Below, one piece after another: positions 1,241 to 10,269 of a DNA stretch of 64,000 nucleotides (positions are counted from its first letter, which is position 1; every line of letters begins with the position of its first letter). Source of the DNA: Candidatus Hydrogenedentota bacterium (lineage in GTDB: Bacteria > Hydrogenedentota > Hydrogenedentia > Hydrogenedentales > SLHB01); NCBI GenBank assembly GCA_045863335.1, contig BTVY01000024.1, positions 32,001 through 96,000 on the forward strand, read 5' to 3'. Position numbers and translations under genes: made by a program. The notes beneath the pieces are model-generated. The model did not search any database. It had not been told where the DNA came from and saw only the letters and a list, made by a program, of their open reading frames with translations.

Positions 1241-2659
1241 TTAGTGGTCCTCGACTTGCTTATGGGATTCCCGTTGCTTTTGCTGATGCAACAGGGCTTT
1301 CAATTCGAATACGGAAATCATGGGCAGGAACCGCACGAACAACAGGAACAGGAACAGGAACAGTCCAATCGTGCCCAGGTAGGTCGCCCAATCCCAGAAC
1401 GTCCCGTGGTAATTACCCCAGGACGAGGGCAGGAAGTCGCGGGCCAGACTCGTCACGACGATGACGTAGCGTTCGAGCCACATGCCCACACTGACGACCA
1501 TGCAGATGGCGAACAGGATGTACAGGTTGTAACGCACCCGCTTGAACCAGAGGAACTGCGGAACCAGGCCGTTGCAGAAGATGAGCGCCCAGTAGGACCA
1601 TGCGTAGTGGCTCGCGCCGCCGGTGACGCCCATGCGGTTGGTAAACATCATGTATTTCTCGTAGATGTTGCCGCTGTACCAGGCGTAAAAGGCTTCCGAC
1701 GCGTATCCGTACAAGACGATCAGCCCGGTGACCAACATGACTTTCGCCATGTTGTCGATGTGCTTCATCGTAATGAGGTCTTCAATGTGGTAGAGCTTGC
1801 GCACGGGAATCGCGAGGGTCAGCACCATCGCAAATCCGGCGTACACGGCGCCCGCGACGAAGTACGGCGGGAAGATCGTCGTATGCCACCCGGGAATGAT
1901 GCCCACGGCGAAGTCGAAACTCACGACGCTGTGCACCGACACCACGAGGGGCGTCGAGATGCCCGCAAGCAGCAGATAGGCCATTTCATAACGCGACCAG
2001 TGGCGGGCCGAGCCGCGCCATCCGAGGGCGCCCATACCGAAGGCGATCTTGGCGAAGCGGTTTTTCGCGCGGTCGCGCAGCCCCGCCAAGTCAGGCACAA
2101 GGCCGACGTACCAGAATAGCGCGGACACGGTGCCGTACGTGGAGATGGCGAACACGTCCCACACGAGCGGGCTGCGGAACTGCGGCCACAGCGCCATCGT
2201 ATTCGGATACGGCAAGATGAAGTAGAACAGCCACGGGCGGCCCATGTGGAGCAGCGGGAACAAACCCGCGCACGCCACGGCGAACAGCGTCATGGCCTCG
2301 GCGAACCGGTTGATGGACGTGCGCCAATCCTGCATAAGCAGAAGAAGAATGGCTGAAATGAGCGTTCCCGCGTGGCCGATACCAATCCACCACACGAAGT
2401 TGATGATGGCCCAGCCCCAGGCGACGGGAATCTGGATGCCCCAGATTCCAACGCCTTTGGCAAACAGATAGCCCACCGCGTTGAGGAGAAGCAGGAGCAA
2501 CAGGGATGCAACCCCCATCGTGATGAACCACGATTTGGGGTGCGGCTTCCGATCGACGATGTCGTTGACCTTGTCGGTCAACGTACCGTAGTCGTGTCCC
2601 GGCTCCAATAAGGGCGGCTGGGGATCAATGTCCGTGAGTTTGTTCTGTACCACTGCCAT
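1241..2659 (-). CDS. actC: Alternative complex III quinol-binding membrane subunit ActC (NrfD/PsrC family)
   Basis: WGWAIINFVWWIGIGHAGTLISAIL, WRTSINRFAEAMT, HMGRPW, SPLVWDVFAISTY. Start taken at MAVVQ (2659). Confidence 0.95.
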   Translation of the reverse strand: MAVVQNKLTDIDPQPPLLEPGHDYGTLTDKVNDIVDRKPHPKSWFITMGVASLLLLLLLNAVGYLFAKGVGIWGIQIPVAWGWAIINFVWWIGIGHAGTLISAILLLLMQDWRTSINRFAEAMTLFAVACAGLFPLLHMGRPWLFYFILPYPNTMALWPQFRSPLVWDVFAISTYGTVSALFWYVGLVPDLAGLRDRAKNRFAKIAFGMGALGWRGSARHWSRYEMAYLLLAGISTPLVVSVHSVVSFDFAVGIIPGWHTTIFPPYFVAGAVYAGFAMVLTLAIPVRKLYHIEDLITMKHIDNMAKVMLVTGLIVLYGYASEAFYAWYSGNIYEKYMMFTNRMGVTGGASHYAWSYWALIFCNGLVPQFLWFKRVRYNLYILFAICMVVSVGMWLERYVIVVTSLARDFLPSSWGNYHGTFWDWATYLGTIGLFLFLFLLFVRFLPMISVFELKALLHQQKQRESHKQVEDH

Positions 2660-5600
2660 GTGTCGTAGGCGCCTCAAGCTCGGGGTTCGGGTTGCGAAGT
2701 TTTGCCAAATAGGTCGTCCGGGGACGGGTATTCAGGTCGGCGAGCAGGCCGTAGTTGCGCGGGCTCGCCTTCCATTTCGATACGGTGCTGTCCGGATCGC
2801 TGATATCGCCAAAGACGATCGCGCCGGCGGGGCAGGCGGTCTGGCACGCGGTAACGATCTCGCCGTCGCGCACCTTGCGTCCTTCCTTCTTGGCCTCGAT
2901 ACGGGCCAGATTGATGCGCTGCACGCAGTAGGTGCATTTCTCCATGACGCCGCGGGTTCGGACGGTTACGTCGGGGTTGTATGCCATCTGCCGCACCGGA
3001 GTGCTGCGGTCGGAGTATTCCAGGAAGTTGAAGCGGCGCACTTTGTAAGGACAGTTGTTCGAGCAATACCGGGTCCCGACGCAACGGTTGTACACCATGT
3101 CGTTGAGGCCCTCTGCACTGTGAACGGTTGCCGCCACCGGGCAAACGACTTCACAGGGGGCATTCTCGCACTGCATGCACGGCACGGGCTGATGAACCAC
3201 TTCGGGATCGCCCGCGGGATCGCCTTTGTAATAGCGGTCGACGCGAATCCAGTGCATCTCGCGCTGGGCGATGACCTGGTCCCGGCCCACGACGGGGATG
3301 TTGTTTTCCGCCTGACACGCGATGGTGCAAACGCCGCATCCGGTGCAGGCGTTGAGGTCGATGGCCATCCCCCACTTGTATCCGTCGTACTCGTGTTCGG
3401 GGAACAGGGTCATGTCCTGCGCGGGGACGTGGCCCATGTGCTGGGCAAATTCGGGGTGTTCCTCAAACTCGTGGAGCGTGCCGACGCGCGCCAGGGGGCG
3501 GCCTTCCTGCGTCAGCACTTGATGCAACTCGGTGCGCGCCAACTGAGCGCCCGTGCTGATTCGGCGCAGCACGGCGCCGACGGCAAACTGCATCGTGTCG
3601 GCGGTACGCAAAAGATAGGCGTTGAACCCGGCACCGTTGCCAACCTTGCCCGCGCGGTCGCGACCATACCCCAGGTGCAACGTCACGGTGTTGTCCGGAT
3701 GACCGGGCTGCACCCAGATTTGCCCCTTCGCCGTCCGCTCGCCCGCCTTGACCTCGACCACGTCGAAGACGTTGAGGCCCAGCTGTCGAGCGGTTTCAAA
3801 ACTGACGATTACGGCATTGTCCCACGTCAGCTTGGTGAGCGGTTTGGGCAATTCCTGCAACCAACCATTGTTGGCCCAACGGCCATCCCCGATCGTGGGG
3901 TCCGGCCGGAAGACAACTTCCAACTCGCCTTCGCCGGAAATCGTCGCGGCCTGTGTGGCGGCATTCGCGCTGAGCGCTACGGACTTCGGCTGAAACGCCG
4001 TGTTTTCAATGAATCCTTTGCTCAACGCGGTTCGCCACGCCACATCGAAGCCCGTTTGCCCAAGCTGGCTTTGCCAATACTGGCGAACCACGTCGTAGGC
4101 GGAAGCGGGCTGTCCGGCAATCGCCGACACCATTTCTTGCGCGGTCTTACCACCGTACAGCGGGACGATGAGCGGCTGAATGATGCTGACCGTTCCGTCG
4201 ATGGAACGAACGTCGTCCCAAGACTCCAGATAGTGAGCCTGGGGGATGTGCCAATGACAGAGCACGCCGGTCTCATCCACATAGAGGCCGAGGTGGATGC
4301 GATGACTTACCTTGTCCAGGGCGGCCGCGAAATTGAGGTCGGCGGGGGCGTTGTACACCGGGTTCCCGCCGAGGATAACCAGCGTGTGGACCTTGCCGGC
4401 TTCCATATCGCGAACGAGTTCGCGCAAAGACTCGATTTGATTGACCGGCTCGGCTTCGACCGGGTCCGTGTAGACGACGGATTTGCCGGCGTTGCCGAGG
4501 GCATCATTCATTGCGTGCGCCAACGCGTGGAGCGACGCGGGTTGACCGTCGCCCGGCACCACGACGCAGGCGCCCGGGTGCCCTTTAAGATCCGCGGCCA
4601 CGGCGGCGACCCATTCCTGCAAGGACCCGTCGGGATCCGCGCCCGGGGCGGCAACGCCGATGGCGCGCGCGATGGCGCGCGCGATGATTTCGACCTGGCT
4701 CGGCGCCACATGCTTGACGTGGTCGGCGGAGGCGCCCGTCAACGTGGGGGTGCTTTCCAGAGCGTAGAGGCGATTCATGTTGGGGTGCGCCCCTTCCACG
4801 GACCGTCGCTTCGCAAAATCATTTGCGTATCGGACACATCCCGGCGCACCGCCAAGCAGGTCCGCATCGAGCGTCAAGATGACATCGGCCTTCGAGAGGT
4901 CATACCGCGTTTCGACGTACTGACCGAAGGCCGTCTGGGCGCCGGCGCGGGCGGAATCGCGGTTCACCGGCTCGTACTGGTGCCAGCGCGCCGACGGCAT
5001 GGCTTCGAGAAGCGCGCGAATGCCCGCCGCCAGAGAAGGCGAACCGACGGTTTCCGTCAGAATGCGAAGCCCTTCACCGGCGCTGTCGCGAAGACCCTCG
5101 CCGATCTTTGCCCCGGCGGAGTCTTTGGGTCCGTTCACCAGAACGTCCATTTCGCTCGTGAAGATGTCCCACGTGGAGATCCGCCCGAGTTTGAGCGGTG
5201 CCGTCGACCGATCCGGATCGTAGAGACTCAATACGGAAGCCTGCGCGAAGATATCGGTCGCGCCATTGGCGGTGCTTGCGGGATGAAGGGGATTCCCCTC
5301 GATCTTCGTCGGGCGGCCGGTGTGGCTCTCGGCCAGCAGACCGATGCCGTATCCGGACAAGGGCATGGCCGTCGCAAAGTACATAGGCGCGCCGGGAACC
5401 ATCTCCTTCGGCGGTGTCACGTAGGGGATGATGTGTTCGGTTGGCTGGCGCGAGCATGCCGAGGTCAAACCGGCAAGCGCCAGCGACGCCCCCATGACCT
5501 TGAGGAACTTGCGGCGCTCCACGCCGCTTTCCATCACCGACGCTTCGCGTGGAAACTCGCGGTAGAGGAAATCGCGGAACTCTTCCGTGTCCGCCAGTTG

Positions 5601-5732
5601 CTCCAGCCCCTGCCAGTACTCCGGACCGCTCCGTTCCTGCAAGCGTTCCCGGATCGTGTCGAGGTTAATGGGTTCCCGTGTTTTTTCTTCGGTATTCACG
5701 ATTGAATTTGCACCTGGCTTCACACTGCTCAT
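2625..5732 (-). CDS. actB: Alternative complex III subunit ActB (Tat signal, molybdopterin-oxidoreductase-like domain plus 4Fe-4S domain)
   Basis: ERRKFLK Tat motif, GRPTKIEGNPLHP, CTGCGVCTIAC, CMQCENAPCEVVCP, CVGTRYCSNNCPY, MEKCTYC. ATG 5732 overlaps the actA stop. Confidence 0.95.
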   Translation of the reverse strand: MSSVKPGANSIVNTEEKTREPINLDTIRERLQERSGPEYWQGLEQLADTEEFRDFLYREFPREASVMESGVERRKFLKVMGASLALAGLTSACSRQPTEHIIPYVTPPKEMVPGAPMYFATAMPLSGYGIGLLAESHTGRPTKIEGNPLHPASTANGATDIFAQASVLSLYDPDRSTAPLKLGRISTWDIFTSEMDVLVNGPKDSAGAKIGEGLRDSAGEGLRILTETVGSPSLAAGIRALLEAMPSARWHQYEPVNRDSARAGAQTAFGQYVETRYDLSKADVILTLDADLLGGAPGCVRYANDFAKRRSVEGAHPNMNRLYALESTPTLTGASADHVKHVAPSQVEIIARAIARAIGVAAPGADPDGSLQEWVAAVAADLKGHPGACVVVPGDGQPASLHALAHAMNDALGNAGKSVVYTDPVEAEPVNQIESLRELVRDMEAGKVHTLVILGGNPVYNAPADLNFAAALDKVSHRIHLGLYVDETGVLCHWHIPQAHYLESWDDVRSIDGTVSIIQPLIVPLYGGKTAQEMVSAIAGQPASAYDVVRQYWQSQLGQTGFDVAWRTALSKGFIENTAFQPKSVALSANAATQAATISGEGELEVVFRPDPTIGDGRWANNGWLQELPKPLTKLTWDNAVIVSFETARQLGLNVFDVVEVKAGERTAKGQIWVQPGHPDNTVTLHLGYGRDRAGKVGNGAGFNAYLLRTADTMQFAVGAVLRRISTGAQLARTELHQVLTQEGRPLARVGTLHEFEEHPEFAQHMGHVPAQDMTLFPEHEYDGYKWGMAIDLNACTGCGVCTIACQAENNIPVVGRDQVIAQREMHWIRVDRYYKGDPAGDPEVVHQPVPCMQCENAPCEVVCPVAATVHSAEGLNDMVYNRCVGTRYCSNNCPYKVRRFNFLEYSDRSTPVRQMAYNPDVTVRTRGVMEKCTYCVQRINLARIEAKKEGRKVRDGEIVTACQTACPAGAIVFGDISDPDSTVSKWKASPRNYGLLADLNTRPRTTYLAKLRNPNPELEAPTTHGSGTEQTHGH

Positions 5733-6391
5733 CGGTGGCACACCGAACAGTTGGTCAACTGCTGTTTGTTGATGTCGTACTCTTCAACGAGGCGCTTGCC
5801 CATCTCGAGCTGGGATTCCTCTCCCGAAGGCCTCCAGTTCATGTTGAACACTTCTTCCTTGGGCCGGATGAACTTTTCCGGCGCCTTATGGCATTCGAGA
5901 CACCACTGCATGTGAAGCGTCTGCCCCTTCGACATGAGTGGCATCTGATTCACCTGGCCGTGACACGTGACGCAGCCAATGCCCTTGTTCACATGGATGC
6001 TATGATTGAAATAGACGAAGTCAGGAAGATCGTTGACGCGAACCCACTCCAGCGGCTCTCCTGTGGCCCAGCTCTGACGCACCGGCTCCAACATGGGCGC
6101 TTCGGTCCAAACCTGTGAGTGGCAGGTCATGCACGTTTCGGTCGGAGGGATTCCCGCGAAGGCATTGTCCTCCACGGAGGTATGGCAGAACCGGCAATCG
6201 ATGCCGAGGGCGTCCACATGGTGCTTATGGCTGAATGGCACGGTTTGTTCGCGAGCCATACCTACGCGGGTCACGAATGGAGAACGATAGAAGATGCCCG
6301 CACCTGCGCAAATGACCCCTAAGAGAAGGACCCCCCCAATGATGCTTCCACGGGCGACCGTGTTCATGCTGGACGGGAAAATCTGTGCCAC
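5729..6391 (-). CDS. actA: Alternative complex III pentaheme cytochrome c ActA
   Basis: N-terminal TM and five CxxCH motifs (CRFCH, CMTCH, CVTCH, CLECH, CSVCH); PFSHKHH, LPDFVYFNHSIH. Confidence 0.95.
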   Translation of the reverse strand: MAQIFPSSMNTVARGSIIGGVLLLGVICAGAGIFYRSPFVTRVGMAREQTVPFSHKHHVDALGIDCRFCHTSVEDNAFAGIPPTETCMTCHSQVWTEAPMLEPVRQSWATGEPLEWVRVNDLPDFVYFNHSIHVNKGIGCVTCHGQVNQMPLMSKGQTLHMQWCLECHKAPEKFIRPKEEVFNMNWRPSGEESQLEMGKRLVEEYDINKQQLTNCSVCHR

Positions 6392-6685
6392 CTGAATACC
6401 TCATCCCACGTACATCAATCCGGCGCACGGCGGGGAGGCAATACCTCTCCCCCGTTCGCAGCGCGACAGAACTTGCTCGCACGTGTCTGATACGTTCCCC
6501 GGCACCAGTACCGGGTCAGCCTTGCCTGATGTTTCCGGACAGAGTTCTCTTGAGAGCGGACTACCACTCGTGTTGGAATCTGAACCGATTGCCTGAAGCG
6601 CCGGTACGTGAACCCGCTTGTCAGCGCACTTCCCGCGACGCCCTACCAACTGCGTCTACGAGAGCCCAACGCTCAGGGAGCCGTG

Positions 6686-6714
6686 AGTGTAATGGCTCCG
6701 ATCCCGAAAGTCAA
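6686..6714 (-). promoter_or_regulatory. Putative sigma70 promoter of the act operon
   Basis: Minus strand TTGACT-N17-TACACT, about 290 nt upstream of actA. Confidence 0.55.
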
Positions 6715-7127
6715 CAACTTTTTCGCGATCAATTTCGCGATTCATCGGTAACTGTATCTGCCCCATGGACTCCGGAACGGGAATATTGGACGCAGGTTGC
6801 TCAAAAAACTGGATTTAGCGAGTTTTTCAGGCGGCGTAGAAATGGATCGTTGGGCGATGCTGGGTCCTGGCACAGCGCGTTCGAACAACGGCCGCAGAAG
6901 GGATTCCATCCGTGAGATCGCGCACGATTACCGGATGCGTTGTGACGGCCAAGAACAAAGACACGCGTCAAGCCGCGCACGCTCTCGCGACCTCGTCCAC
7001 TCGCCATCCAAGTGTTTGCCAAGGGGGTGAAGTTTTTGAAGTGTTCATGGGGCGTTGCCCCATGCTGGTATAGAGCGCGCCGTTGGCGCAGGTATCACGA
7101 TAGCTCGTGTCACAAAGTAATTCTCCC

Positions 7128-7215
7128 GAGGGCCAACGGCCCGAACCATACCAGCCTGGGCCGCAGGCCCAGGGCCAGGAAAAATCACTTGCCGAGAGGG
7201 CTGAAAGCCCGGCCT
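7128..7215. repeat. REP-like palindromic element
   Basis: Three short hairpins: GGGCCAACGGCCC, CCTGGGCCGCAGGCCCAGG and GGGCTGAAAGCCC. Architecture resembles the element at 25830-26028. Confidence 0.6.
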
Positions 7216-7364
7216 ATTGCCCACGACGAGTCGGGCCAAATAATTGCAAATCTATTGCGGTTCGTGGGGCCGTGCGGGTTGAAATGTCAGCACCGCACCC
7301 TTTGTAAGGATATATTTCAAAAGCGCATACAACCGACCGGGGAGCGGGAACAACGAATGCGTCA

Positions 7365-7399
7365 TTGCGATCAGGTGGTTTATGTTCTAGACTTTGAAC
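7365..7399 (+). promoter_or_regulatory. Putative sigma70 promoter with overlapping imperfect palindrome (candidate operator) for the XRE-ahcY unit
   Basis: TTGCGA-N17-TAGACT (7365-7393); GTTC-N8-GAAC (7384-7399) covers the -10 box. Confidence 0.45.
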
Positions 7400-7426
7400 G
7401 GGTATTGGCAGTCCGAGGTGATATAC

Positions 7427-8182
7427 ATGCTGCTTTCAGATTTGGCGAAGCGGATTCGTTCGAAACGCGAGAAGCGCGGTCTGAAACAGCAGGACATCGC
7501 CAACGCATTGAATGTCAGTCCCCAAGCCGTCTCCAAGTGGGAGCGCGGCGAGAACGCGCCGGATATCGCGGTGCTCGGGCCTTTGGCCAAGCTGCTGGAT
7601 GTTTCCGTGGATTGGCTGCTGGGGACGCGCGAGGAAGGCGTCGACGTGTTCCAGGCGAGCGTACTCGTCAGCAGCATCTCCGGCGCCTATGAGAAGTCGT
7701 TGCATATGCAGGCCCGGGATTTCGCCATCTGGGCGAATGGCCTGTTCTACCAGTTGACAGAGATTACGCTGCGGCACGACGGCATTCCCGTGAAGTACAT
7801 GGGCGACCGGTATCTCGCCTTCTTTTCGGGCACGAGCCATCCGGAGCGCGCGCTTCAGACCGCCGCCGAGGGCCGCGTGCTGATCGGCGACGACCTCCGG
7901 ATCGGCCTGAGCACGGGCGAGATTTACCTCGGTTCCGTCGGCCACCCGGATTACGCGCGGCCCGACATCATGGGGTCGACGGTGAATCTGGCGTTTCTGA
8001 CCCTTGACTGGGCCGAGAAGAACGCGGAGAGCGGCTTGGCCGCACCGAAGGCGATGGTCGACGGTCAGACGTTGGAGGTCGACGTCGGACGGCGGGCCAA
8101 GGTGAATTTCCTGGACATCGACCGTGCCGTGGAAGTTTGTGAATTGTGCATCACCGGTTCCCTGGCGAACCGCGAAAAATAA
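7427..8182 (+). CDS. XRE-family HTH regulator fused to a degenerate class III nucleotidyl cyclase domain
   Basis: HTH: RIRSKREKRGLKQQDIANALNVSPQAVSKWERGENAPD. Cyclase motifs: HDGIPVKYMGD, LRIGLSTGEIYLG, DIMGSTVNLA. RBS GAGGTG before ATG 7427. Confidence 0.85.
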   Translation: MLLSDLAKRIRSKREKRGLKQQDIANALNVSPQAVSKWERGENAPDIAVLGPLAKLLDVSVDWLLGTREEGVDVFQASVLVSSISGAYEKSLHMQARDFAIWANGLFYQLTEITLRHDGIPVKYMGDRYLAFFSGTSHPERALQTAAEGRVLIGDDLRIGLSTGEIYLGSVGHPDYARPDIMGSTVNLAFLTLDWAEKNAESGLAAPKAMVDGQTLEVDVGRRAKVNFLDIDRAVEVCELCITGSLANREK

Positions 8183-8242
8183 GGAATGGCAACGGACGGG
8201 CCGGCGCGATGCGTCCCGTACATCCAAGGAGGTTTGAAGACG

Positions 8243-9694
8243 ATGAGTCCTGCGACACTCGAAAAACAGGCCGACTACAAGGTCGCCGACCTGGGTCTGG
8301 CCGATTGGGGCCGCAAAGAAATCGACATGGCCGAAAAGGAAATGCCCGGTCTCATGGCGATTCGCGAGCGTTACGCCGCCCAGCAGCCGTTGAAAGGCTA
8401 CCGGGTCATGGGTTCGCTCCACATGACGATTCAGACGGCAGTCCTGATCGAAACGCTTGGCGCATTGGGCGCCGACGTACGCTGGGCGAGCTGCAATATC
8501 TTTTCCACGCAGGATCATGCTGCCGCCGCGATCGCGAAAGCAGGGTACCCCGTGTTCGCGTGGAAGGGCGAGACCCTCGAAGAGTACTGGTGGTGCACGC
8601 TCCAGGCCTTGACGTGGCCGGATGGCAGCGGCCCGCACCTCATCGTCGACGACGGCGGCGACGCGACGTTGCTGATCCATCGCGGGTACGAGTTTGAAGA
8701 AGTGTTCTCGAAAACCGGGAAGCTCCCGGAAGTCAGCACGGAGAATCAGGAAGTCGAGATCGTGGACCGGCTGTTGCACAGCGTCCATGCCGAGCTGCCG
8801 AACAAGTGGCACGGATACGTGAACGACTGGATCGGCGTTTCGGAAGAGACCACGACCGGCGTGCATCGTCTGTATCACATGATGAAGGCGGGCACCCTGC
8901 TGACCCGCGCCATCAACGTGAACGACTCGGTGACGAAGTCGAAGTTCGACAACCTCTACGGCTGCCGCGAGTCGCTGGCCGACGGTATCAAGCGCGCCAC
9001 GGACGTGATGGTCGCGGGCAAGGTCGTCGTGATCGCGGGTTATGGCGACGTGGGCAAAGGCTGCGCGGACGCCATGAAGGGTTTGGGCGCGCGCGTGCTG
9101 ATTACGGAAATCGACCCCATCTGCGCGTTGCAGGCCTGCATGGAAGGCTATGAAGTGTTGACCATGGAAGACGCGGCCCCGAAGGGCGATATCTTCGTCA
9201 CGACGACCGGCTGCTGCGACGTGATCCGTCGCGAGCATCTCCAGAAGATGAAGGACGAAGCCATCGTCTGCAACATCGGCCATTTCGATTCCGAGATCGA
9301 AGTCGCGTGGCTGGAATCGGAAGTCGCCAAGGGCAACGTGACCGAACTGAACATCAAGCCGCAGGTGGACAAGTACATCTTCCCGAACGGCAACTCGGTG
9401 ATTCTGTTAGCGAAGGGCCGCCTCGTGAACCTCGGTTGCGCGACGGGCCACCCCTCCTTCGTCATGTCCAACTCCTTCGCGAACCAGACACTCGCCCAGA
9501 TCTCGCTGGCGACGGAAACGAAGTTGTACGAGTCCGGCAAGGTCTACACCCTGCCGAAGGTCCTCGACGAAGAAGTCGCGCGGCTGCACCTGGAAAAACT
9601 CGGCGCACGCCTCGAACGCCTGTCCGACAAGCAGGCAAACTATCTCGGCGTCCCGGTCGAAGGACCGTACAAGCCGGACCACTACCGCTACTAA
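8243..9694 (+). CDS. ahcY: S-adenosylhomocysteine hydrolase
   Basis: [92 protein letters not shown] before ATG 8243. Confidence 0.98.
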
Positions 9695-9720
9695 TCGCAA
9701 TGGACTGACGAAGAGCCAAT

Positions 9721-9760
9721 CGCCGCGTCCGGTGCCAACCGCCGGACGCGGCGTTTTTTG
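9721..9760 (+). terminator. Rho-independent terminator after ahcY
   Basis: CGCCGCGTCCGG / CCGGACGCGGCG 12-bp stem followed by a T tract. Confidence 0.85.
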
Positions 9761-10269
9761 TTGTCCCCAGCCACCATGAGGCAAAGGCCCGACGGAAGGC
9801 CGCACGGCGATCGCCAATCATTGTCGGTAGCTTGGCAGTCCCCGCCTGCCCAACCCGAACCGGCCACCTCAACGGTAATGATTCGTTTCTTGCCAACGCG
9901 GAGACGTACATAGGTCGCCACGTGCGAATCATCTACGTGCCTCCCCGATCAGCAGTAAGGAAAGGGGCCGTCGCCGCGAAAACGGATTGAAGATTCTGGG
10001 CCCCATTAGTACGCGTTGCGGAATGTTCAACAGCGAGCCCTCTCTTCAGCCCCAATCCTCAGAAGTCCCACTGTTGCATTACGACTTGGGCCCCAGAGCC
10101 AAGCCCGATTGCTCGAGTGATACTTGCACGACGGGTACCCTTATAATGCACTTGAATTGGTATGGCATCGAACGCATTCTGCGCCGGTCCCGAACTTCCG
10201 GTCCCAGCTGAATCAGAGTGAAGCTCTCGTCATCAAGACACAACCTGTCACAGGTCCCGCCGCCGTGGC

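Follow-up and report, generated by a model that had tools for sequence, protein, structure and literature searches.

An XRE-type regulator with a degenerate class III cyclase-homology domain and a candidate tandem operator upstream of ahcY in Candidatus Hydrogenedentota

A 64,000-nucleotide stretch of a Candidatus Hydrogenedentota genome (contig BTVY01000024.1 of assembly GCA_045863335.1, positions 32,001 to 96,000; the window) contains a gene for a 251-amino-acid regulator directly upstream of ahcY, which encodes S-adenosyl-L-homocysteine (SAH) hydrolase. The regulator combines an XRE helix-turn-helix (HTH) with a class III cyclase-homology domain in which two catalytic residues have been replaced, and it is preceded by a conserved box that is unique in the genome at its score. 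We consider it probable, at about 0.6, that this protein is a local, autoregulated regulator of ahcY in which the pseudo-cyclase serves as sensor and dimerization domain for an adenosyl effector, most likely SAH.

The regulator and its cyclase-homology domain

The open reading frame (ORF) of the regulator spans 7394 to 8182 on the forward strand, and the ATG at 7427 was chosen as its start on the basis of an N terminus of the form M-L/F-L...DL that is common to the homologs. Pfam assigns residues 10 to 64 to HTH_3 (PF01381, 61.9 bits) and residues 78 to 189 to Guanylate_cyc (PF00211, 24.5 bits, with a cut-off of 21.9); NCBIfam gives only sub-threshold XRE-type matches. In a sequence search of the PDB, the HTH matches the P22 c2 and 434 repressors (E about 4e-6). 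The AlphaFold2 model, built from an 80-row alignment, has a mean predicted local distance difference test score (pLDDT) of 93.5, and a Foldseek search of the PDB with this model ranks class III cyclases first, with a probability of 1.00 over about 190 columns: Cya2 (2w01) and CyaC (1wc0) match at E values of 1e-12 to 1e-11 (best 1.4e-12) with a TM-score (target) of about 0.72, and when CyaB (3r5g) and Rv1625c (4p2f) are included, the E values extend to 1e-10 at a TM-score of about 0.7. The protein is thus confirmed as an XRE HTH joined to a class III cyclase-homology domain, the fusion that a preliminary description of this DNA had proposed.

Six positions define the class III cyclase active site: a pair of metal-binding aspartates, a lysine and an aspartate that read the adenine, and a transition-state asparagine and arginine. 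Catalysis needs both the metal-A aspartate and the transition-state arginine. These positions were read from phmmer alignments of residues 76 to 191 of the regulator to Cya2 (2w01), CyaB (3r5g), and Rv1625c (4p2f). The first metal aspartate is replaced by Ser83 (V-S-S-I, where the cyclases have T-S-D-L, F-S-D-I, and F-A-D-I), and the transition-state arginine of the A-S-R motif is replaced by Leu191 (A-F-L). Retained are Lys123 and the second metal aspartate, Asp127 (both in KYMGD), Asp180 (PDIMG), and Asn187. With the metal-A aspartate and the transition-state arginine gone, the domain is predicted to be catalytically degenerate. The three alignments agree with the preliminary description on the two lost residues and on the retained adenine-reading pair, and they add the retention of Asp127.

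Of 1809 candidates from a word-index protein search, 930 match the regulator at E ≤ 1e-3. The 120 matches listed are 59 to 100% identical to the regulator over 81 to 100% of the query, and those that carry names come mostly from Candidatus Hydrogenedentes; among 50%-cluster representatives, searched exhaustively, 48 match at E ≤ 1e-30. Residues were counted in an 80-sequence alignment of 51 close homologs (at least 58% identity) and 29 distant 50%-cluster representatives. Among the close homologs, position 83 is serine in 49, alanine in 1, and glycine in 1, and is never aspartate (0/51). Lys123, Asp127, Asp180, Asn187, and Leu191 are each present in 51/51, and arginine at position 191 occurs in none (0/51), so that the joint loss of aspartate and arginine, which the preliminary description had singled out as a check, is conserved. 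Distant representatives have aspartate at position 83 in 7 of 29 cases and arginine at position 191 in 11, and the full catalytic set D-K-D-D-N-R is found in only two of them, P0137 and P0140. These two proteins also carry the G-H-P-D/E-Y motif of the family and are possibly active cyclases with an HTH. Because distant representatives, including this pair, keep catalytic residues, the family appears to include possibly active HTH-cyclases at one end and, at the other, a clade that is degenerate throughout. The recognition region of the HTH, SPQAVSKWERGEN (S-P-Q-A-V-S-K-W-E-R-G-E-N), is nearly invariant in all subgroups.

The cyclase-homology domain (residues 70 to 251) was modeled as a head-to-tail homodimer with an ipSAE of 0.91 in each of three runs, where the best of three controls reached 0.00; contact agreement between the runs was at least 98%, and the pLDDT of the partner was at least 89. 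In the calibration of the method, the ipSAE mark was passed by 20 of 30 proteins whose solved structures are same-chain pairs and by 1 of 23 with single-chain structures, counts that apply only roughly here because a custom alignment was used and a small molecule, SAH, was included. The SAH in these runs was unscored, and the dimer model is silent on ligand. In the modeled interface, Lys123, residues 169 to 178 (G-S-V-G-H-P-D-Y-A-R), Asp180, residues 182 to 187, and Leu191 lie opposite residues 86 to 112 of the partner.

Gene order, candidate operator, and predicted promoter

The features of the locus, all on the forward strand, are as follows.

7330 to 7346: distal, weaker copy of the putative operator, O2, with the left half tCAAC and an internal CG conserved, starting 21 nucleotides (nt) 5' of O1
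7351 to 7367: proximal 17-bp putative operator O1, a quasi-palindrome of the type CAAC-N9-ATTG scoring 29.8 bits and assigned by conservation
7365 to 7370: predicted −35 hexamer TTGCGA, whose TTG is formed by the last three bases of O1, placed by its spacing to TAnnnT
7384 to 7399: GTTC-N8-GAAC palindrome, overlapping the predicted −10 hexamer
7388 to 7393: predicted −10 hexamer TAGACT, beginning 20 nt after O1, with the T, A, and final T columns at least 80% conserved
7427 to 8182: regulator gene (251 amino acids), with the XRE HTH at residues 10 to 64 (7454 to 7618) and the degenerate cyclase-homology domain at about residues 74 to 241 (7646 to 8149)
8183 to 8242: 60-nt spacer between regulator gene and ahcY, with a ribosome-binding site and with no terminator, Rfam match, or conserved element
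8243 to 9694: ahcY, S-adenosyl-L-homocysteine hydrolase (483 amino acids; TIGR00936, 631.5 bits, cut-off 497.6; PF05221, 483 bits)
9721 to 9763: intrinsic terminator of the operon, a stem of 14 pairs (12 of them G-C) followed by a T run

The region from 7330 to 9763 is best explained as a two-gene operon, regulator and then ahcY, which would be read from a single predicted promoter. A terminator scan found no terminator-like site in 8183 to 8242 and a strong one at 9721 to 9753, and the arrangement given in the preliminary description, with ahcY 60 nt 3' of the regulator, no terminator between the two genes, and one after ahcY, proved correct. So did its remark that no riboswitch for SAH or S-adenosylmethionine (SAM) is visible: Rfam gave no such match at E ≤ 5 in 6400 to 10000, and no Rfam family reaches its gathering score anywhere in the window. 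A weak consensus match inside the regulator gene (7801 to 7820) belongs to a class found at chance level (5 found, 4.4 expected). A 943-letter contig of the RNA library X2 matches 7383 to 8325 with 42 differences and spans the junction between the two genes; it is not counted as evidence because contigs cannot show transcript, strand, or start, and DNA may be present in the library. The small shares found in runs X5 to X24 are uninformative on habitat.

The gene order is conserved. On contigs of the genome collection, ahcY lies directly downstream on the same strand in 20/23 loci, and the three loci without it are the most divergent of the set, with 51 to 54% identity. The regulator occurs in 35/135 genomes of the window's phylum (22/86 high-quality genomes and 30/53 genomes of the same family), and there ahcY is downstream in 28/29 loci, the remaining locus stopping at a contig end; the genomes of these 29 loci overlap those of the 23-locus set. 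The regulator is also followed by ahcY in two further genomes (G083 and G094), unlike in G072 and G073. A second phylum, to which locus L022 belongs (Latescibacterota), has the regulator in 28/168 genomes, and its 29 loci have ahcY downstream in 21 cases, a thrC-like gene in 5, and a Trm112-like ORF in 1, with 2 cut by contig ends. The linkage to ahcY that the preliminary description had put forward for checking is therefore found in two phyla (28/29 and 21/29 loci). A metagenome scan with a peptide pattern of the HTH only gave 80 loci; three of them (L059 to L061) belong to the family, and the remaining 77 were set aside.

The distance from regulator to ahcY is 14 to 133 nt in 18/21 rows, and these spacers share no sequence element; rows L011 and L016, which gave negative gaps (an artifact of start-codon picking or frameshifted assembly), were dropped. 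Short spacers, of 14 to 18 nt, occur in five loci, namely, L006, L007, L010, L017, and L155. Locus L012 (5727 to 6426) has a 685-nt insertion between the two genes, with a small ORF and repeated ccacagag-type flanks, which resembles a small mobile element or a repeat. In L016/L056, ahcY is matched in two separate frames, and the ORF of the regulator extends to 333 amino acids; these frame breaks are probably indel errors of long-read assembly and not gene decay.

An in-register stack of 21 upstream regions shows a common architecture of O2, an interval of 21 nt from start to start, O1, 20 nt, and a conserved TAnnnT. The offset between the starts of O2 and O1 is 21 nt in 20 of these loci and 22 nt in the other. 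O1, 17 bp long and of the CAAC-N9-ATTG type, has a conserved G-C-G-T-C core. When O2 is scored with the O1 matrix, its values are low, at −9.8 to 14.4 bits. When the TTG of O1 is taken as the start of the −35 element, the spacer to TAnnnT is 17 nt, a distance that is fixed throughout the stack.

The O1 matrix has 20 columns and was built from 16 nonredundant sites. In the 6.75-Mb genome of the window (G000), O1 scores 29.8 bits, and the next best of 13.5 million positions scores 20.6. Sites of at least 20 bits number 4 in this genome versus 3 in its block-shuffled version, and weaker sites are in mild excess (61 versus 18 at 16 bits or more); for the best matrix score in random 500-nt windows, the 99th percentile is 13.0. 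In G000, metK, metH, and metF lack the box upstream, with best scores of 0.4, 6.1, and 3.8 bits. This rules out a global methyl-cycle regulon in that genome, so that the methyl-cycle regulator of the preliminary description keeps its link to ahcY and loses its general role there. The site of 20.6 bits is close to metF, where it overlaps the start codon of the following gene (by eye, one for a secreted protein); it was regarded as a chance match. A degenerate box pattern run on the window finds O1 only, with 1.21 matches expected by chance at one mismatch, and adds nothing to the matrix scan.

Across the window's phylum, a box of at least 18 bits stands 53 to 109 nt from the regulator start in 25/29 loci, and three more loci have a box of 14.1 to 17.6 bits at 74 to 97 nt; locus L058, on a contig shared with L019, has only a variant box, longer by one base, at about 150 nt from the start. 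In the second phylum, the O1 matrix places the box at −65 to −95 in 29/29 loci. A matrix made from 12 sites of the window's phylum only gives its best hit at −65 to −88 in 29/29 of these loci, with at least 15 bits in 25/29 and a median of 16.9, versus a median of 9.9 and a maximum of 15.6 over the remaining sequence of the same loci (about 2 kb per strand). The comparison of upstream regions that the preliminary description had suggested thus uncovered O1 and O2, and not the operator it had named. The GTTC-N8-GAAC palindrome does exist at 7384 to 7399 and overlaps the −10 hexamer as described, but it is conserved only among the closest relatives: it is identical only in L003 and L004, imperfect in L005, and absent from the other 17 ahcY-linked loci compared. 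Its frequency is at chance level, with 3 occurrences in the window versus 1.26 expected and 9 of 100 shuffles reaching 3, and it was rejected.

The box co-occurs with the regulator family. Ten same-family genomes without the regulator were examined for a box at ahcY, one of which (G085) has no ahcY match. The box is absent within 400 nt upstream of ahcY in seven of these regulator-less loci (best score 13.2 bits, at 381 nt), and in an eighth, only 91 nt 5' of the gene are available. Relatives that lack the regulator show diverse sequences in front of ahcY, and at 11 ahcY loci without an adjacent regulator, a search for riboswitches gave no Rfam hit at E ≤ 0.1. In six genomes that encode a homolog away from ahcY, the ahcY promoter keeps the box architecture to a varying degree. 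The box scores 20.9 bits in L140 and 18.3 bits in L143, each with O2 and the −10 hexamer in register, and 13.6 bits in L172, and it is recognizable by eye in L173.

A separate case is G087, a genome of 100% completeness (locus L149, G087:C174, 600 to 1010), which keeps O2, O1 (19.6 bits), and the −10 hexamer 5' of ahcY. Between box and ahcY there is only a remnant of the regulator that matches residues 182 to 240 (the C-terminal 65 to 90 codons or so), and no other copy of the regulator was found in the genome at E ≤ 1e-4. This state looks like an internal deletion of the regulator gene.

Relatives of the regulator also stand in front of other genes. In L155 (G139:C10, 1360 to 3520), a paralog of 50% identity with the full O2, O1, and −10 arrangement upstream lies 13 nt before purA, the gene for adenylosuccinate synthetase (PF00709, 525.7 bits); its pocket is altered at two positions (Asp127 to Pro and Asn187 to Ser). 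No further purA-linked paralog was found among the 33 genomes of the phylum of G139. In five loci of the second phylum (L194, L195, L196, L198, and L199; wider context in L203 and L204), regulator and box precede a thrC-like gene of the threonine-synthase type (463 to 472 amino acids; TIGR00260, 217.7 bits, cut-off 167.1); their identical box scores suggest that these loci are probably close kin. In four genomes with this linkage (G287, G302, G303, and G311), the box is absent at ahcY (best scores −2.0 to 4.8 bits), and in G329, where the regulator is linked to the Trm112-like ORF, the best score at ahcY is only 6.6 bits. A sister clade of 51 to 54% identity (L024/L161, L025, and L169) has the same six-residue signature, with lysine for Arg178; it adjoins a divergent TauE/SafE exporter gene and/or sits upstream of a 1-Cys peroxiredoxin gene, and no box was found in front of its genes. 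The stretch AAAGTCAAG is common to the regions upstream of the gene in L023 to L025.

On the 5' side of the regulator in the window, a gene-poor stretch of about 1 kb contains two sub-threshold matches to the Acido-Lenti-1 RNA motif (7046 to 7090, forward strand, 25.9 bits; 7129 to 7173, reverse strand, 32.4 bits; gathering score 37), which form a 40-nt inverted pair with 75% complementarity. Further upstream, at 2625 to 6391 on the reverse strand, a 1038-amino-acid ORF is overlapped by a 220-amino-acid ORF with several C-x-x-C-H motifs; by eye, the two look like a respiratory pair of molybdopterin/iron-sulfur protein and multiheme cytochrome.

Proposed mechanism and rival explanations

In the mechanism that we favor, the regulator would dimerize through its dead cyclase-homology domain and bind O1 and O2. 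The predicted −35 element is embedded in O1, which would be centered at about −41, and the weaker O2 lies two helical turns upstream; occupancy of the two boxes would control the synthesis of the regulator itself and of AhcY. Tandem 17-bp operators over a −35 element recall the lambda operators. The adenine- and ribose-reading residues are kept at the modeled dimer interface, where the two former active sites could hold an adenosyl compound that alters DNA binding. The most likely candidate is SAH, the substrate of AhcY, in which case ahcY would be raised when SAH accumulates, and the favored sign of control is repression relieved by ligand. Retention of the promoter in G087 together with loss of the regulator leans weakly toward a repressor. 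SAH is the first choice because it is the AhcY substrate, because the pocket has lost the phosphate and metal residues and kept those for adenine and ribose, and, by analogy, because both known dedicated controls of ahcY respond to SAH according to passages of PMC4239095. A more far-reaching proposal is offered tentatively, at somewhat less than even odds: that a dead class III cyclase domain was recruited as the SAH or SAM sensor of a new XRE family, which would be a third, independent SAH-responsive control of ahcY acting through tandem lambda-like operators over the −35 element, and that this module was rewired to thrC-like genes, to purA, and to ahcY in trans.

Several observations weigh against the favored mechanism. 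Ser83 is not universal among ahcY-linked members, with aspartate in L017, glycine in L193, and threonine in L177, and L177 also has arginine in place of Lys123. Two of the six genomes with an unlinked homolog (L170 and L171) keep only left half-boxes at ahcY, and the regulator is restricted to 35/135 genomes of the window's phylum. A consensus promoter scan did not call the predicted promoter, which matches at 8 of 12 positions where the scan needs 9, so that its assignment rests on conservation. A box centered near −41 is compatible with activation no less than with repression, and this is also the classic position for an activator. The success of the dimer model may reflect memory of, or likeness to, solved cyclase dimers, and the family-specific G-H-P-D-Y sits in the modeled interface, so that some of the conservation may serve dimerization and not a ligand. 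The occurrence of this type of regulator before purA (one locus) and before thrC-like genes (five loci) would fit SAM or an adenine nucleotide as the effector no less than SAH.

The last of these points bears on which ligand the pocket might hold. purA catalyzes the first committed step to AMP, and its linkage fits an adenine nucleoside or nucleotide signal. Plant threonine synthase is activated by SAM, and the thrC linkage fits a signal of the SAM or SAH type. In passages of PMC4239095, hom and thrC are listed in a MetR regulon. That the same local regulator of ahcY responds to adenosine or to an adenine nucleotide (AMP, ADP, ATP, or cyclic AMP [cAMP]) and not to SAH is rather unlikely in our estimate, although the retained residues are precisely those that read adenine and ribose, the second metal aspartate is kept as well, and a paralog with the same box stands 13 nt before purA. 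The ligand could then be a corepressor that lowers ahcY when adenosine would reverse the AhcY reaction. The purA case is, however, a single locus with an altered pocket, the loss of the metal-A aspartate and of the phosphate/transition-state arginine speaks against a triphosphate, and the known dedicated regulators of ahcY are SAH-responsive in the passages of PMC4239095 that describe them. If instead the cyclase-homology domain were a dimerization module only, the protein would be an effector-less autoregulator that buffers ahcY, or would answer to a signal that has nothing to do with the former active site. The location of G-H-P-D-Y and of most conserved residues in the modeled interface would suit such a protein, and an excerpt of PMC12565409 describes negative autoregulation alone as common among XRE regulators. 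Yet Lys123, Asp127, Asp180, and Asn187 are retained in 51/51 close homologs despite the lost catalysis, and a dimerization module has no obvious need for the substrate-specifying pair, which makes this explanation a distinctly unlikely one.

Two further explanations would detach ahcY from the proposed sensor altogether. An active nucleotide cyclase fused to an HTH, making cAMP or cyclic GMP with only an indirect link to ahcY, might be expected from the Pfam Guanylate_cyc match above its cut-off and from the two distant representatives that keep all six catalytic residues; the absence of both Asp83 and Arg191 from every close homolog makes it highly improbable. The regulator and ahcY could also be mere neighbors, with the box belonging to another factor, given that the link between protein and box is drawn from sequence. 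We give this hardly any credence: the box is present with the regulator family and absent without it, it accompanies the regulator to the thrC-like and purA operons, and in several loci, a spacer of 14 to 18 nt is too short for ahcY to have its own promoter.

Comparison with known systems

SAH is a product inhibitor of all SAM-dependent methyltransferases, and AhcY removes it. As described in passages of PMC4239095, dedicated control of ahcY has so far been known in the form of a riboswitch or of SahR, and ahcY is a core target of both of these SAH-responsive systems. The locus described here points to a further family of ahcY regulators, with a defined candidate operator, in poorly studied phyla (metagenome-assembled genomes of the Hydrogenedentota, Sumerlaeota, and Latescibacterota type). 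A search of full-text articles found no description of an XRE-cyclase regulator or of an XRE regulator of ahcY.

The same passages describe SahR as an ArsR-family, SAH-responsive regulator of SAM-cycle genes that controls its own expression, recognizes a palindrome, and counts ahcY among its core targets. The regulator resembles it as a protein transcription factor with ahcY as its probable target, and it would share autoregulation and a palindromic box, both putative here. Its fold differs from that of SahR in both halves, since an XRE HTH and a cyclase-homology domain stand in place of an ArsR-family protein; Pfam and NCBIfam give XRE-type HTH families only and no ArsR-type match. The two differ also in reach, as the candidate box in G000 is confined to the local operon, with none at metK, metH, or metF. 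With the SAH riboswitch, the system would have in common a dedicated cis control of ahcY (PMC4239095, in the passages cited above), exerted in that case by RNA and not by protein, and neither the locus in the window nor the 11 related ahcY loci have an Rfam match.

Among XRE one-component regulators, including repressors of the lambda and 434 type, an N-terminal Cro/C1 HTH followed by a C-terminal dimerizing or sensing domain is the shared plan, and one-component XRE regulators with other sensor domains are already known. The difference lies in the sensor, which here would be a pseudo-cyclase and not a peptidase-like domain or a cupin as in the XRE-cupin proteins treated in an excerpt of PMC7901475. 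To the class III cyclases (Cya2, CyaC, CyaB, and Rv1625c), the regulator is tied by its fold, its modeled head-to-tail homodimer, and the retained lysine, aspartate, asparagine, and second metal aspartate. It is set apart from them by the absence of the first metal aspartate and the transition-state arginine throughout its clade, and by an N-terminal XRE HTH where no regulatory domain of the cyclase type is found. If the proposed mechanism holds, the protein would be a clean case of an enzyme domain turned ligand sensor, a pseudoenzyme, and the transition could be traced because the family still holds members with the full catalytic set. It would also offer cyclase researchers a natural case of what a nucleotide pocket binds once its phosphate chemistry is gone.

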